Positions 34,913 to 38,805 of a stretch of 64,000 bases of DNA are shown here, one piece after another (position 1 is the first letter of the stretch; every line of letters begins with the position of its first letter). A program made the translations under genes and the position numbers. Below the pieces are notes generated by a model that saw only the letters and a list, made by a program, of their open reading frames with translations, did not search any database and was not told the DNA's origin. Origin of the DNA: Candidatus Daviesbacteria bacterium (GTDB lineage Bacteria > Patescibacteriota > Microgenomatia > Daviesbacterales > UBA10151); contig JACPKP010000006.1 of assembly GCA_016186955.1 (NCBI GenBank), positions 4,055 through 68,054 of the forward strand, in the 5' to 3' direction.

Positions 34913-36316
34913 TTACTTTAAATCTTCAATTCCACCAACCATATAGAAGGCCTGTTCGCCTTTGGAGTCATGCTTACCTTTAATAATCTCTTTAAAAAGC
35001 TGGACGGTTTGTTTTAAGGTTACATATTTGCCTTTTCTGCCGGTGAATGCTTCTCCTACAAAAAAAGGTTGAGAAAGAGCCCTTTGGATCTTCCTGGCGC
35101 GGGTCACAATCAGTTTATCTTCATCAGACAACTCTTCCATGCCCAAAATAGCGATAATATCCTGCAGATCTTTATACCTTTGCAAAACTTTTTGCACTTT
35201 CACAGCTATGTCATAATGCTCCTGGCCAACTATTTCAGGGGTAAGGGCTCTTGAGTTGGAAGAGAGGGGGTCAACTGCAGGATATAATCCCTGTTCAGCC
35301 AGTGACCTTTCCAGGGCGATAGTTGAGTCAAGGTGGGCAAAAGTTGTGGCTGGCGCGGGATCTGTATAATCATCCGCCGGGACGTATACAGCCTGCACTG
35401 AGGTAATAGAGCCTTTTTTGGTGGAGGTAATCCGCTCCTGCAAAGCACCCATTTCAGTAGCCAAAGTCGGCTGGTAACCCACGGCAGAAGGAATTCTTCC
35501 CAAAAGCGCTGAGACCTCTGACCCAGCCTGAGAAAACCTGAAGATATTGTCAATAAACAACAGTACATCTTTACCCTGCTCATCCCTAAAATATTCAGCC
35601 ATTGTCAGGCCTGACAAAGCAACACGCTGCCTGGCGCCGGGAGGCTCATTCATCTGGCCAAAAACCATGGCTGTCTTATCAATCACCCCTGAGGCGATCA
35701 TCTCGTGGTATAGGTCATTTCCTTCCCTGGTTCTCTCACCGACACCGGTAAAAACAGAGTAGCCTCCATGCTCTGCAGCAATATTGCGGATCAGCTCCTG
35801 GATTAAGACAGTTTTGCCAACTCCAGCGCCTCCAAATAACCCAACCTTTCCGCCTTTGACAAACGGCGCTAAAAGGTCAATAACTTTTATGCCTGTTTCA
35901 AAAACCTCCGAAGTTGTGGACTGCTCATCAAATTTTGGAGCGGGCCGGTGGATGGGCCAACGCTTTTTTGTCTTGACAACACCTTTGTTATCTACAGTAT
36001 CCCCCAAAACATTAAAAAGCCTGCCTAAAACTTCTTCACCAACAGGTACAGAGATCGGGGCGCCTGTATCAAAAACTGTCATACCGCGCTTTAACCCGTC
36101 GGTAGAAGACATAGCCACAGCCCTTACAACACCATCTCCTAAATGCTGCTGTACTTCCACAACTAGTTTCGCTGATCTCACCTCGGTTGCGCGCACCTCC
36201 GAGGTGTGCTTGGGGAGCGCAATCTCCACTGCATTATAAATTGCAGGCAGTTTCTTTTCGCTGAATTGAAGGTCCAGTACCGGGCCAATGATTTGAACTA
36301 TTTGTCCTTTATTCAT
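34913..36316 (-). CDS. atpD: F1 ATP synthase beta subunit
   Basis: P-loop GGAGVGKT, with DELSEED-region equivalents. Contains a palindrome-encoded insertion near the N-terminus (36178..36208). Confidence 0.95.
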
Positions 36317-36317
36317 A

Positions 36318-37226
36318 TCACTCCAACGCTGCCTGGGCAGATGTTATCTCCAAAAGCTCATTTGTTATCCCTGCCTGGCGCGTTTGATTATAACTAAGCT
36401 GCAAATCCTCCACAAGTTCCTTGGCATTATCTGTAGCATTTTGCATGGCTATCATCCTGGCTGAATGTTCTGAGGCCTTTGTTTCTAAAAGCGCCTGGTA
36501 AATTTTAGTTTCAATCTGGTGGTTTAATACAAAGTCCAAAAGGTCGTTAGGGTTGGGATCAAAGAGGAATTCGCCACCTGTTACACCTCCGAGGTGTGAT
36601 CCAGATGTCACTTTATCTTCACCTCGGAGGTGAGCAGTGTCAGGGTTCGTAACTACTGACACATTAATTGGCAAAAGCTTTACAATTTTTGGCTCCTGTT
36701 TTAAGGTTGAGATAAAATCCGGATAAATTATATAAACTTCTCCAACCCCACCGCTTAAAAATGTTTCAATTAAGAGTTTGGCAATCTGTTTTGCCTGCCT
36801 GAATGTAACAATCTCCGGGTTTTCAAAATCCGCCTCCAGTTTATTTCCTGTCCTGATTACAAAATTCCTGCCTTTTTTACCAACTGTGTAATATAAACTG
36901 TTGTTCCCGCGGAAGCGGGAATCCATCAATATCATTCTGAATATATTAGTGTTCAACGCCCCGCACAGGCTTTTGTCCGTAGTCAAAAGTAAAACAGCCG
37001 CACCTAACCCATCATGTGGCTGTAAAAGTGGGCTTAACTCTGGCTGCACATTGGATGACAATTTCGCCAAAGCGCCTGCCAAGGTTAAGTCGTATGGCCT
37101 GCCAGACAAAGCCTGCGCTTGGGCTTTTCTCATCTTTGTCGCCGCCACCATTTGCATGGCTTTGGTAATTTGGGAGGTATTTTTAACCGACCTGATTCTT
37201 CTTCTTAACTCACGTGTATTAGCCAT
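36318..37226 (-). CDS. atpG: F1 ATP synthase gamma subunit
   Basis: [36 protein letters not shown] is the gamma N-terminus. Two palindromic insertions lie at 36584..36634. Confidence 0.9.
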
Positions 37227-37248
37227 ATTTTAAATTGCAAATTAAAAA

Positions 37249-38805
37249 TTATTTTTTATTTGTTTTCTGAAACATCTTCATAAACTCAGTGGTAATTTTC
37301 TCCAACTCTTTAGTCAATTTTTCATCCAACTCTTTTTTTTCAGCAATTTCGCCTAAAAGTTTTTTCTCTTTCAACCTTAAATTTTTGATAAACTCTGTTT
37401 CAATCTCTTTAACTTTTTCAACATCAACCTCATCAAAATACCCGTTTGTGACAACCCAAAGGATAACAACTTGTTCTTCAACAGGAACAGGGGAGTAGGG
37501 CGGCTGTTTTAAAACCTCTGTTATACGCCTACCTCTTTCGATCTGCGCCTTAGTAGAAGCATCCAGATCTGATGAAAACTGGGCAAAAGCAGCCAGTTCC
37601 CTAAATTGGGCCAAATTCAACCTTAATTTCCCCGCAACTGATTTCATGGCTTTAGTCTGGGCTGCACCGCCAACCCTGGACACTGATAAACCCACATTAA
37701 GGGCCGGCCTTGTCCCTGCATAGAATAAATCAGACTCTAGGTAAATCTGCCCGTCTGTAATGGAAATAACATTGGTCGGAATATAGGCGGACACATCTCC
37801 AGCCTGCGTTTCAATAATCGGTAAGGCTGTCAGGGAACCTCCGCCAAAATCCTGGTTTAATCTGGCAGCCCGCTCAAGTAACCTGGAATGCAGGTAAAAT
37901 ACATCTCCTGGATAAGCTTCGCGGCCAGAAGGCCTTCTCAGCAGAAGCGACATCTGGCGGTAAGCCCAAGCATGTTTTGACAAGTCATCAAAAATGACCA
38001 GTGCATCTTTCCCCTGGTCCATAAAATATTCACCGATTGCACAACCTACGTAGGGAGCAAGATATTGCATGGATGCCGGGTCGGAAGCAGATGCCACAAC
38101 CACAATTGTATGGTCCATGGCTTTATTTTCTTCAAGTTTGGCCACAAGCTGGGCAACCTTGGAAACTTTTTGGCCGATTGCCACATAAATACAAATAACA
38201 GGACTTTCACCTCGGGGGTGTCCACCAGACTTAAACCGAGCTTCACCCCCGAGGTGGGCCTGGTTGATGATGGTGTCAACAGCTATTGTAGTTTTACCGG
38301 TATTGCGGTCACCGATAATAAGCTCCCTTTGGCCCCTGCCTATAGGGATCATGCTGTCTATGGCCTTAATGCCTGTTTGAAGAGGGATATCAACACCTTG
38401 GCGGGTTATAACACCTGAGGCAATTTTTTCAACAGGATAATATGTCTTAGTCTTGACCGGACCTTTGCCATCAAGCGGCTGGCCTAAGGCATTAACAACC
38501 CTACCTACCAAAGCTTCTCCAACAGGCACTTCTAAAACCCTGCCTGTTGTTTTTACCAAATCTCCCTCTTTAATTTTGGTAAAATCTCCCAGGATAACCG
38601 CACCAACGTTGTAGGTTTCCAGGTTCAAAGCTAAGCCAAAAATTGACCCGGGGAATTCAATCAGCTCAGAGGCCTGGACATCTGATAACCCTTCTATCCT
38701 GGCAATACCGTCTCCCACTTCCACAACAGTACCGACATTGGTCTTGCCTGCCTTCATTTTCAAACCCTTAATTTCTTTTTCAATCTGGTTGATTATATCT
38801 GACAT
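37249..38805 (-). CDS. atpA: F1 ATP synthase alpha subunit
   Basis: [19 protein letters not shown]-loop, with IYVAIGQK. An insertion encoded by palindromes lies at 38205..38258. Confidence 0.95.

Follow-up and report, generated by a model that had tools for sequence, protein, structure and literature searches.

Four sites in pheT, atpD, atpG and atpA of a Candidatus Daviesbacteria MAG are probably copies of a non-autonomous, hairpin-forming, REP/MITE-like repeat that is native to Microgenomates (CPR) and survives as in-frame loop insertions. All four copies in the window, which is the whole 64-kb stretch of DNA that was analysed, are intragenic. Near-palindromic arms of 13 nt matching CACCYCSRRGGTG with at most two mismatches occur seven times in the window compared with 0.57 expected, a number reached by none of 100 shuffles, and the exact form CACCTC-N-GAGGTG is found three times compared with 0.00 expected. 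The shuffles rule out chance or composition as the source of the motif.

An inverted repeat of 49 nt

Arms matching CACCYCSRRGGTG start at 9269 and 9305 in pheT (+ strand), at 36194 in atpD, at 36584 and 36620 in atpG, and at 38208 and 38244 in atpA (all three on the - strand). A first-pass annotation of this DNA had reported short palindromes inside these coding regions, a claim that a frequency no higher than composition predicts would have undermined. The frequency is far higher, and every quoted string was found in its place, but the pheT list was incomplete and missed the first arm at 9269. The view of the elements as single CACCTC(N)GAGGTG palindromes had to be abandoned, as the palindromes are not independent and occur as pairs 36 nt apart that form a 49-nt inverted repeat. 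Six of the seven window arms make up three such units (pheT, atpG and atpA), and the seventh belongs to a deletion remnant in atpD. No additional copies were detected in the window by nhmmer with a profile built from 30 foreign copies.

The unit is composed of a 13-nt arm, a 23-nt spacer and a second 13-nt arm, and the arm starts are 36 nt apart in pheT, atpG and atpA. In atpG and atpA the two arms are perfect reverse complements of each other, and in pheT complementarity extends to 12 of the 13 positions. Folding of the single strand, be it DNA or RNA, would give a stem of 13 bp closed by a loop of 23 nt. The pheT copy (9269..9317, + strand) lies in the gene for the 577-aa phenylalanine--tRNA ligase beta subunit (8321..10054, + strand), which is 100 % identical to an NCBI record from Candidatus Daviesbacteria. 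Its arm 1, CACCCCCAAGGTG, occupies 9269-9281, its spacer 9282-9304 and its arm 2, CACCTCGGGGGTG, 9305-9317, and it reads in translation as HPQGVDRDSAEFHLGG. The sole inter-arm mismatch in the window is found here; in the mRNA it sets A against C (A·C) and does not form a G·U wobble.

The other three host genes are encoded on the - strand. The gene for the 302-aa F1 gamma subunit, atpG (36318..37226; NCBIfam E 2e-80), contains a 49-nt copy at 36584..36632 with arms at 36584-36596 and 36620-36632 that are exact reverse complements; this copy scores 57 bits with nhmmer (E 9e-17) and folds as RNA at -32.7 kcal/mol (z -5.7). In atpA, encoding the 518-aa F1 alpha subunit (37249..38805; NCBIfam E 2e-241), the 49-nt copy at 38208..38256 has the arms CACCTCGGGGGTG and CACCCCCGAGGTG, each an imperfect palindrome and together perfect reverse complements, and its RNA fold reaches -36 kcal/mol (z -4.5). 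The gene for the 467-aa F1 beta subunit, atpD (34913..36316; NCBIfam E 4e-246), holds a decayed, internally deleted copy at 36179..36206, with an intact arm at 36194-36206 and a half arm CACCTCGG at 36179-36186, read in the other frame (TSEV) as 10 residues. The palindromic insertion claimed for atpD stands as an insertion but not as an intact element; a complete 49-nt unit, HTSEVRSRRHLSSTSEV, occupies the same atpD site in the relative L017.

Pairing between the arms is conserved well beyond the window. Across 36 copies the 13-bp inter-arm helix is paired in 467 of 468 cells, and its two variable pairs are UA in 24 and CG in 12 copies, and AU in 24 and GC in 12, with none unpaired, whereas a local-hairpin model leaves six cells unpaired and six as wobble at its variable pair. 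Double changes from U-A to C-G keep the arms complementary, and arm variants break the dyad inside an arm yet preserve complementarity between arms. Of the 82 copies at low-GC loci, 12 are explained by the long-range model alone and none by the local model alone; 65 have arms that are reverse complements of each other (33 of 35 in the 49-nt class). A complementary centre base is seen in 70 of these 82 copies as against 10 of 34 high-GC background matches. The 12 informative copies against none, the centre-base rule and the pair counts lead to rejection of independent local palindromes in favour of one inverted repeat. The spacers are recognisably related between genes and genomes (consensus AAGnnAAGnTGAAAnCTGGAnCA) and fall into classes that give units of 40/41, 43 and 49 nt. 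The inserted length is 48-54 nt, the unit being about 54 nt when flanks are counted. By position counts the stem begins with CACC and finishes with GGTG, and the flanks contain no GTAG/CGTC.

The arm core equals what is presumably, by the textbook 16S rRNA 3' end, the SD/anti-SD core (TCACCTCC / GGAGGTGA). An origin of the unit from the 16S rRNA 3' end was rejected, the match being limited to the 8-nt arm core TCACCTCC; the spacer shows no significant likeness to that end (its score was equalled by 1091 of 5000 shuffles), and the 16S gene is absent from every locus fetched. A known RNA family was also rejected, since Rfam at gathering thresholds returned just two tRNAs in the window. The identity of the arm with the SD/anti-SD core and the strong RNA folds (-33 to -36 kcal/mol, z -4.5 to -5.7) bring in an unlikely alternative, namely that the hairpin is a functional nucleic-acid module under selection and not junk. 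The mRNA stem could mask an internal Shine-Dalgarno GGAGGUG with the anti-SD mimic CACCUCC and so tune how ribosomes pause, how stable the mRNA is or how RNase III processes it, or the DNA could act as a cruciform or protein-binding site. The double compensatory changes that maintain arm pairing favour such a module, as does the RNase III gene in the window, while the A·C mismatch in pheT and the insignificant likeness between spacer and 16S 3' end count against it.

Spread through Microgenomates genomes

GTDB species genomes were searched with a pattern that leaves four positions per arm free. More than 118 loci matched, and among the matches listed the hosts are mainly Davies-, Curtiss-, Roizman-, Levy- and Beckwithbacteria and the modal unit length is 49 nt (38 of 113). 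The host genes belong to at least 20 unrelated housekeeping kinds, including PurL, RecJ, M1 peptidase, class II aaRSs, ClpB, TopA, UvrB, CCA enzyme, DinB, P-type ATPase, Mur ligases, SecA, GatA, AspRS, the F1 alpha, beta and gamma subunits and PheT. This heterogeneity of host genes, and of positions within them, argues against a functional module. Inside ORFs of at least 150 aa lie 60 of the 82 copies at low-GC loci. Intergenic copies exist as well, and those at L001 and L041 are found 12-13 nt upstream of start codons, a placement that fits the module. An assembly artefact is ruled out because the 49-nt unit recurs in MAGs of many unrelated assemblies and sampling projects, occupies orthologous positions and shows graded decay; it is also found in a single-contig Roizmanbacteria genome of 1.23 Mb. 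A phage vector was rejected after a scan of viral contigs gave two pattern matches, spanning 55 and 57 nt, and no 49-nt unit. Clustering of the ORFs from 79 element-bearing loci yielded syntenic host genes only and no recurrent accessory gene.

Copies in one genome mostly share the same type of arm, as in Curtissbacteria MFCA01, where all five copies are C-G-type. Such uniformity is in keeping with an uptake-signal-like motif that, competence being presumed, would spread through biased uptake of DNA together with homologous recombination instead of by transposition. CPR genomes encode type IV pilus components, and PilM is present in the window. The atpA copies of the window and its relative L105 are more similar than the surrounding gene, which could mean recent recombinational transfer. 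Seven arms in 64 kb is a low density next to that of known uptake sequences, which have about one site per kb. In addition, the arms are almost never single (six of seven in 49-nt pairs, the seventh a remnant), each copy is a separate insert of 48-54 nt and not a motif built by point mutation, and the viral contigs contributed the above two matches only, all of which makes spread by uptake very improbable.

Reading frames and protein loops

The 60 in-ORF copies use a restricted set of frames. Of the first arms, 43 lie in phase 0, 17 in phase 2 and none in phase 1, and both arms share one frame in 51 of the 60. The frames used are HLRGE…HLGGV or TSEV…TSEV, both stop-free, with TSEV…TSEV in 17 of 60, and the Pro-Pro-Arg frame is never used. 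Every in-ORF copy is without stops and keeps the frame of its host, and only stop-free combinations of orientation and phase occur. The phase bias and the unused Pro-Pro-Arg frame argue for some filtering at the peptide level, and from these frame statistics the inserts would be translated as 16-18 extra residues.

Two further explanations have to be weighed against the frame data. The first holds that the peptide and not the DNA is selected, the His/Gly-rich loop HLRGE…HLGGV having arisen by convergence for metal binding or recognition. The predominance of phase 0 and the avoidance of the Pro-Pro-Arg frame would suit it, but reverse-complement arms are a symmetry of DNA that is meaningless for a peptide, and AF2 gives no confident structure for the insert. 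The copies in the TSEV…TSEV frame, which include that of atpD in the window, and the copies between genes already largely refute this explanation, and it is given hardly any credence. The second holds that the inserts are not translated, either because they are excised from the transcript or because the ribosome skips over them, as it does at T4 gene 60 and the mitochondrial 'byp' elements. The present unit resembles known bypass elements in its size of about 50 nt and its strong hairpin. A bypassed insert breaks the frame or bears stops; the in-ORF copies are stop-free and frame-preserving, with the arms mostly in one frame, and this counts against skipping, which would need neither property. 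Skipping is thus extremely doubtful.

The extra peptides are true insertions, given clean gaps in solved homologues and their absence from close relatives. The 16-residue AtpA insert faces a clean gap of 15-16 residues in 9nvl_A, the 16-residue AtpG insert a 15-residue gap in 9itj_G, and the PheT insert a 13-residue gap in 2rhq_B. Most of 120 PheT orthologues have a short loop at the site, and about 25 carry single degraded arms. In the AF2 model of PheT the insert is the only disordered segment and lies between two strands; the block of 10 residues at 321-330 has a mean pLDDT of 48, and residues 327-331 fall below 50. The gaps in the AtpA, AtpG and PheT homologues and the PheT model place the inserts in predicted loops compatible with the protein fold. 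The first-pass annotation had suggested that the extra segments are lacking in orthologues, that alignment with relatives would reveal indels exactly at the palindromes and that the inserts might be surface loops. The gaps of 13-16 residues, the relatives without inserts and the disordered PheT block bear these suggestions out where absence from orthologues, exact indels and a loop position are concerned, and the extra residues are not common to unrelated bacteria.

Presence, absence and decay among relatives

The F1 genes were compared with those of 13 relatives, whose AtpA is 73-85 % identical. The atpA insert is found in two genomes only, the window and L105, and eleven relatives read NQ-(K/H/R/T)D-V(I/V)CIY at this site with no insert. 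The atpG insert is found in three (the window, L017 and L121), with one remnant in L105, and the others are without it. At the atpD site, L017 carries the insert and the window its remnant, and L105 and 10 further relatives have none. The distribution of inserts is discordant with the NJ tree, and for gain versus loss of the atpG insert the tree shows a patchy pattern in a highly variable loop. Decaying copies are seen in atpD (window), atpG (L105, L128) and atpA (L121). Some loops were struck independently, in a different frame or form, such as the atpA loop (window and L121), the PurL loop (L081 and L095) and the loop of the CCA enzyme (L031 and L068).

The arms look more conserved than the neutral expectation. 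Among atpG copies that were located without the use of the arms, identity with the window extends to 51 of 52 arm bases (25/26 and 26/26), as compared with 9-11 of 23 identical spacer positions (39-48 %) and about 45 % at third codon positions of the gene. The atpA copies of the window and L105 are identical at 47 of 49 positions, as compared with 0.75 over the whole gene. At one and the same site, DinB orthologues have arms of either the T-A or the C-G type. The conservation of the atpG arms and the two DinB arm types are as compatible with a selected structure or with homogenisation of copies as with repeated insertion, and together with the atpA copies they are the points from relatives that favour the functional module. 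Against it, most close relatives lack copies in the same essential genes and are evidently viable, and many copies are visibly decaying (in atpD, atpG, atpA and the roughly 25 PheT orthologues).

Proposed origin of the copies

The REP/MITE-like repeat could have reached its present distribution in three steps. Copies would land at many places in the genome; because genomes are about 90 % coding, those that persist would be in frame, stop-free and in permissive surface loops, where they would be translated as 16-18 extra residues in the HLRGE…HLGGV or TSEV…TSEV frame; and point mutations and internal deletions would afterwards erode those copies that are not lost outright. The anatomy, taxonomic spread, indel polymorphism, frame restriction and loop location of the copies were observed; a 'selfish' or 'mobile' character is suggested by their distribution. 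The mobilising enzyme might, as a guess, be a single-strand transposase that recognises hairpins, of IS200/IS605 or RAYT type. No transposase was matched by Pfam among about 50 of the 67 ORFs in the window. Comparison of filled and empty sites in atpA, atpD and atpG revealed no recognisable target-site duplication; these insertions are old and their flanks have diverged.

Comparison with known repeats

The likeness to Rickettsia palindromic elements proposed by the first-pass annotation is real, with hairpin repeats in frame in housekeeping genes of at least 20 families, but it is a likeness and presumably not homology. RPE-1 to RPE-10 (Ogata et al. 2000) are repeats of about 100-150 bp in Rickettsia, according to the passages on them in two later accounts (PMC10969869; PMC3733652). 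In those passages, RPEs are palindromic hairpin repeats that sit in frame within many unrelated housekeeping genes, in a bacterium with a reduced genome; the extra peptide that they add is conserved and occupies fold-compatible loops. They are patchy among related species, and no dedicated transposase is named for them. The Microgenomates unit likewise has a stable hairpin, is in frame and missing from orthologues, and encodes a loop-compatible peptide. It is not a repeat of about 100-150 bp of a Rickettsia consensus family. Its 49 nt and 16-18 residues amount to about one-third of the RPE length, its hosts are Microgenomates/CPR and not Alphaproteobacteria, its arms are themselves near-palindromic with an SD/anti-SD core, and about three-quarters of its copies are intragenic. 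The unit is presumably unrelated in sequence to RPEs, from which the length and phylum in the RPE description set it apart.

REPs have stems of 5-13 bp and loops of 2-20 nt, and more than half of the intragenic ones are dimers or grouped repeats that encode 20-30 aa, with many in genes for DNA repair and replication and for tRNA synthetases (Di Nocera et al. 2013, PMC3733652). The Microgenomates unit resembles REPs and REPINs in its short stem-loops, frequent inverted pairs and genome- or lineage-specific families, in having two inverted palindromic units that form a larger hairpin, and in its hosts (UvrB, RecJ, DinB, TopA and aaRSs). It differs in that no GTAG/CGTC tag stands beside the stem, its 23-nt loop slightly exceeds the reported REP range, 60 of 82 copies are intragenic whereas REPs are mostly extragenic, and no RAYT gene was seen nearby when about 50 of the 67 window ORFs were compared with Pfam. 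The unit shares with MITEs such as Correia/NEMIS, ERIC and Nezha the terminal inverted repeats (here 13 bp), subfamilies with the same ends and different interiors, and occasional in-frame ORF fusions (PMC10969869). It is smaller than their usual 70-300 bp (PMC10969869). A target-site duplication, which flanks a MITE, was not recognisable at the diverged atpA, atpD and atpG sites. A MITE has a parent autonomous IS with the same ends, and the ends of the Microgenomates element are CACCTCSGAGGTG.

A further comparison is offered by DNA uptake sequences (DUS/USS) and by the short dyad-symmetric sites matS, NBS and parS, at which proteins bind the chromosome. These are single motifs of characteristic density that originate by point mutation, and the GC-rich 13-nt dyad resembles them in being over-represented, tolerated in coding sequence and uniform within a genome. 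The Microgenomates motif is not a single motif placed about once per kb by point substitution, as DUS/USS are, and is found only within a discrete inverted-repeat insertion of about 50 nt. The literature on palindromic elements in Patescibacteria, Microgenomates or CPR yielded no earlier description, the broader search being judged from its top-ranked papers, and searches by arm sequences and peptide strings returned no paper with either arm sequence.

Implications

In-frame palindromic 'selfish DNA' in essential genes has hitherto been a curiosity, mainly of Rickettsia and a few intragenic REPs. A much smaller and differently built family across a whole CPR class shows that such insertion has arisen again in a second lineage with reduced genomes. 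Many lineage-specific loop insertions in CPR proteins are thereby given a source. Alignments, trees and predicted structures of these proteins can be led astray by the 49-nt unit, which also provides a clean marker for strain and lineage typing. The copies also amount to a natural experiment on which loops in proteins such as F1-ATPase, aaRSs, SecA and UvrB put up with 16-18 extra residues.

Arm conservation and the SD/anti-SD match bear on whether such elements are purely parasitic, which can be tested here. There is a small chance that the hairpin has a job linked to translation, its arms being held by selection or by self-templated correction. If so, the perfect Shine-Dalgarno heptamer GGAGGUG that each copy brings into an essential mRNA, together with its pairing partner CACCUCC as an exact mimic of the anti-SD tail of 16S rRNA, would be a portable module for pausing, stability or RNase III processing, and the intergenic copies could serve as maskable ribosome-binding sites. 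Microgenomates would then carry a genome-wide, mobile, translation-coupled RNA structure within their coding sequence.

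The 49-nt inverted repeat in pheT and the atp genes

The window is part of a Candidatus Daviesbacteria MAG (Microgenomates, CPR); approximately 90 % of its DNA is coding and its G+C content is approximately 41 %. An NCBI record from Candidatus Daviesbacteria matches the window PheT at 100 % identity, and the identities of pheT (forward strand) and of atpD, atpG and atpA (all reverse strand) are secure. The first-pass annotation had described short palindromes inserted in frame into these four genes. Every palindrome string that it quoted is present and the palindromes are real, but it had missed that they are arms arranged in pairs 36 nt apart. 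A search with the degenerate arm CACCYCSRRGGTG, allowing up to two mismatches, returned 7 matches against 0.57 expected, a number reached by none of 100 shuffles. The matches lie at 9269 and 9305 in pheT, 36194 in atpD, 36584 and 36620 in atpG, and 38208 and 38244 in atpA. Paired arms are spaced exactly 36 nt, giving a unit of 13 + 23 + 13 = 49 nt whose arm 2 reads as the reverse complement of arm 1, perfectly in atpG and atpA and with 12 of 13 positions matching in pheT. The atpD site at 36179-36206 is a remnant with one intact arm and a half arm. Searching the 64 kb with a profile HMM of 30 foreign copies recovered these four sites, all in pheT, atpD, atpG and atpA, and no further copy. Given the paired arms and the recovery of only four sites by the profile, the repeating unit is a 49-nt inverted repeat and not a single palindrome. 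For the RNA of the unit a 13-bp stem closing a 23-nt loop is predicted, with energies of -32.7 kcal/mol (z -5.7) for atpG and -36.0 kcal/mol (z -4.5) for atpA.

Other features of the window

A second palindromic repeat, CCTGCCTGCCGGCAGGCAGG, forms a perfect 20-nt palindrome at 9442-9461 inside pheT, where it is in frame (KNLPAGRQVD) and 24 orthologues are two codons shorter; 0.00 occurrences are expected by chance. Loci collected from other CPR genomes for the 49-nt element, designated here by L numbers, hold nine further copies (L003 at 3199 and 7049, L019 at 43, L042 at 488, L043 at 1587, L061 at 624, L069 at 1090, L075 at 32 and L091 at 5187). Several of them resemble intergenic terminators, a hairpin with a T run after it, and the copy in L019 is nested between two CACC…GGTG arms. 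An intergenic hairpin at 5407-5460, after a class II aaRS gene, contains TCCTGAGCAAAGCGAAGGA, which has a relative with two mismatches at 17918 (window 17917-17957); these two matches, against 0.16 expected, weakly suggest another small repeat. The segment 16001-20000 has a G+C content of 0.51 compared with 0.39-0.42 in its neighbours and may be foreign DNA; it carries an adenylosuccinate-synthetase-like gene (16476-17933) and ORFs without a Pfam match (18134-19462 and 19402-20526). Approximately half of the roughly 50 window ORFs scanned have no Pfam match. Genes identified elsewhere encode a homologue of the methylmalonyl-CoA mutase large subunit (41696-43294, E 3e-193), RNase III (53185-53850) and the type IV pilus protein PilM (57893-58930).

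A repeat family across Microgenomates

One genome per GTDB species was scanned with a pattern left free at four positions per arm and at a spacing of 14-32 nt, and at least 118 loci were found. The low-GC matches listed come overwhelmingly from Microgenomates (Davies-, Curtiss-, Roizman-, Levy- and Beckwithbacteria), and their spacers share a common consensus across different genes and genomes. High-GC matches, from Actinobacteria and others, resemble background or tandem coding repeats and served as an internal control. Among the matches listed, the modal unit length is 49 nt (38 of 113), and 79 of 113 lengths are congruent to 1 modulo 3.

Two shorter classes with the same arms are absent from the window. 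Units of 40/41 nt (L011, L032, L037, L038, L046, L065, L082, L093, L100, L107, L115 and L117) have a spacer close to AAAAAATGCGATTA and encode the peptide E(E/K)MRL; in the 41-nt form the frame shifts from arm to arm (TSEVKKMRLHLGGV). Units of 43 nt occur in L029, L034, L054, L055, L109, L116 and L118. A subgroup of these has a spacer close to GTGTTGCGCCTGCGGCA and the peptide GVAPAA (L029 and L116, with L109 in reverse complement and L034 and L055 as variants), and L054 and L118 have unrelated AT-rich spacers.

Some matches carry unexpected taxonomic labels. MAGs labelled "uncultured Gammaproteobacteria" (L017, L033, L064, L105, L115 and other "binchicken"/SRP-coassembly MAGs) have approximately 40 % G+C. 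The label of L105 and L017 looks wrong, since their atp operons are 72-76 % identical in DNA to that of the Daviesbacteria window, with AtpA 73-85 % identical. Omnitrophota MAGs (L006, L012, L016, L052, L058, L072, L085, L088 and L090) contain a repeat with the related arms CACCCCGGGGGTG … CACCCCCGGGGTG, chiefly in non-coding DNA or short ORFs. In L006, L052 and L088, which belong to one MAG, the stem is lengthened by the spacer ends AGAG…CTCT. The Omnitrophota repeat may represent its own REP-like family or one shared horizontally.

Insertion polymorphism among relatives

Solved homologues leave a clean gap opposite each insert, 15-16 residues long in AtpA, 15 in AtpG and 13 in PheT. The atp operon was compared among 13 close relatives, of which the element scan supplied L105 and L017, and a metagenome scan with AtpG, independent of the element, supplied L119-L129. 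In atpA, the window and L105 have the full element, L121 has a decayed 37-nt copy at the same site in another frame (TSNV…TSEV), and eleven relatives read NQ-(K/H/R/T)D-V(I/V)CIY without an insert. The full element is present in atpG of the window, L017 and L121, and a remnant (HLTGAT) in L105; elsewhere the arms are unrecognisable and the loop is hypervariable. For atpD, L017 has the full element (HTSEVRSRRHLSSTSEV), of which the window carries an internally deleted version, L129 and L128 have unrelated extra residues at the site, and L105 and the remaining relatives compared have no insert. In a neighbour-joining tree the window and L105 are sisters and L017 is nested among insert-free genomes. 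The inserts are thus real insertions with a patchy distribution.

A similar pattern is found in other genes. Among 120 PheT orthologues of 55-63 % identity, the site is a short loop in most and holds the element or its debris in approximately a quarter, as the 49-nt type, the 40-nt type (HPGGEEMRLHPRGG) or single degraded arms, e.g. HPRGV and HLEGG. One PurL loop reads DTPGV…DTPGV in L081 compared with a lone HLRGE arm in L095. Set against L031, the CCA-adding enzyme gene of L068 combines a decayed copy with a fresh 52-nt copy at a second site. Both cases represent loops that were hit independently. In PurL of L095 a full unit is followed by a single arm 75 residues downstream, and DinB of L045 has three consecutive arms at 6456-6560 (HLRGE…HLGGEFAHPRGE).

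Coding context and loop location

Housekeeping enzymes of unrelated families serve as hosts. Beyond F1 alpha, beta and gamma and PheT, those recognised by Pfam are PurL, RecJ, M1 aminopeptidase, class II aaRSs, ClpB, topoisomerase I, UvrB, the CCA-adding enzyme, an ATP-grasp (succinyl-CoA-synthetase-like) protein, DinB, a P-type ATPase, Mur ligases, a glycosyltransferase, a VirD4-like ATPase, SecA, GatA and AspRS. Among the matches listed, 60 of 82 low-GC copies lie inside ORFs with a length of 150 aa or more. Of these 60, 43 have their first arm in phase 0 (H-[LP]-x-G), 17 have it in phase 2 (T-[SP]-E-V) and none in phase 1 (P-P-R); the frame of the two arms agrees in 51. Several combinations of orientation and frame bring stop codons into the consensus, so the frames observed are those expected to pass a filter that admits only stop-free, tolerable peptides. 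Two intergenic copies (L001, 6306-6354; L041, 5442-5490) precede a start codon by 12-13 nt.

An AlphaFold2 model of the window PheT has a mean pLDDT of 92; its only block below 50 (residues 321-330) falls within the insert, in a loop between the strands 314-316 and 335-339. At the AtpA site outgroup bacteria have natural expansions of about a dozen residues, which marks this loop as intrinsically permissive.

Arm pairing and conservation

The search pattern imposed no complementarity at the free arm positions. Among the matches listed, the centre bases are complementary in 70 of 82 low-GC copies and 34 of 35 copies of the 49-nt class, compared with 10 of 34 high-GC matches, and the second arm is the reverse complement of the first in 65 of 82 low-GC copies. 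Where the arms are not self-complementary, 12 of the copies listed fit pairing between the arms only and none fits pairing within an arm only. In an alignment of 36 copies, 467 of 468 cells of the inter-arm helix are paired, a count in which nine of 13 pairs are fixed by the search pattern and the copies share descent. Its variable pairs are UA in 24 and CG in 12 copies, and AU in 24 and GC in 12, with no unpaired cell; the variable pair of a local-hairpin model has six unpaired and six wobble cells. The arm type is mostly genome-specific, e.g. C-G in all five copies of the Curtissbacteria genome MFCA01.

The main rival to the probable origin given below, itself improbable, is selection on the stem. 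Two atpG copies that were located without use of the arms agree with the window at 51 of 52 arm bases, compared with 9-11 of 23 spacer positions, 65-66 % of the gene and 45 % of third positions. The atpA copies of the window and L105 are identical at 47 of 49 positions, compared with 75 % across the gene, and among DinB orthologues a single site is occupied by T-A-type, C-G-type or 40-nt versions. Selection on the hairpin, correction among the four copies of the half-arm, or repeated re-insertion into the same permissive loop could each account for these observations. The widespread decay of the element and its absence in close relatives oppose an essential role. Explanations as an uptake signal, a peptide module or a bypass are each contradicted by specific results.

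The arms are identical to the Shine-Dalgarno/anti-Shine-Dalgarno core (TCACCTCC / GGAGGTGA), which we take to be a textbook motif identity: in all arms, e.g. those of atpG at 36584-36596 and 36620-36632, the half-sites GGAGGTG(A) and (T)CACCTCC match this core and the 3' tail of 16S rRNA. Every copy therefore places a perfect internal Shine-Dalgarno sequence, masked by an anti-Shine-Dalgarno mimic, into the mRNA. The spacer shows no significant similarity to the 16S 3' end.

Comparison with known systems and probable origin

The repeat is probably a non-autonomous hairpin that spreads within Microgenomates genomes, presumably by transposition through a mobilising enzyme. Copies would persist where their translation yields a harmless loop, and the survivors would then slowly erode or be deleted, the behaviour generally ascribed to Rickettsia palindromic elements (RPEs) and intragenic REPs. 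The data establish the family, its anatomy, the indels, the filtering of frames and the position in loops; transposition, translation and the enzyme are inferred. No transposase was found among the roughly 50 window ORFs scanned with Pfam or as a recurrent neighbour in 79 element loci, and no target-site duplication is visible at the insertion sites.

The closest behaviour is that of RPEs (PMC10969869) and of intragenic GTAG/CGTC REPs (Di Nocera et al., PMC3733652), the latter with a strikingly similar host spectrum. The first-pass comparison with RPEs was supported in the sense that the element works like them, whereas its length and host organism differ and there is no sequence relationship. 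Unlike GTAG/CGTC REPs, it is without the tag and mostly intragenic, and no RAYT (the transposase tied to REP elements) was found among the window ORFs scanned; compared with MITEs, it is smaller and has no recognisable target-site duplication or parent IS. As it departs from RPEs, REPs and MITEs in defining features, the 49-nt element represents a new family that works like them. Literature searches, with much of the subscription literature outside their reach, turned up no account of the element, of its sequence or of such insertions in CPR bacteria. The family is distinguished by its minimal size, its nested symmetry, with each arm near-palindromic, and its arms built on the Shine-Dalgarno/anti-Shine-Dalgarno core.

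That such elements exist would not astonish a specialist. Three things would still merit follow-up: a 49-nt, class-wide and mostly intragenic family in CPR bacteria, the presence of a copy in each of the three main F1 subunits, and the unexpected conservation and Shine-Dalgarno-like character of the arms.
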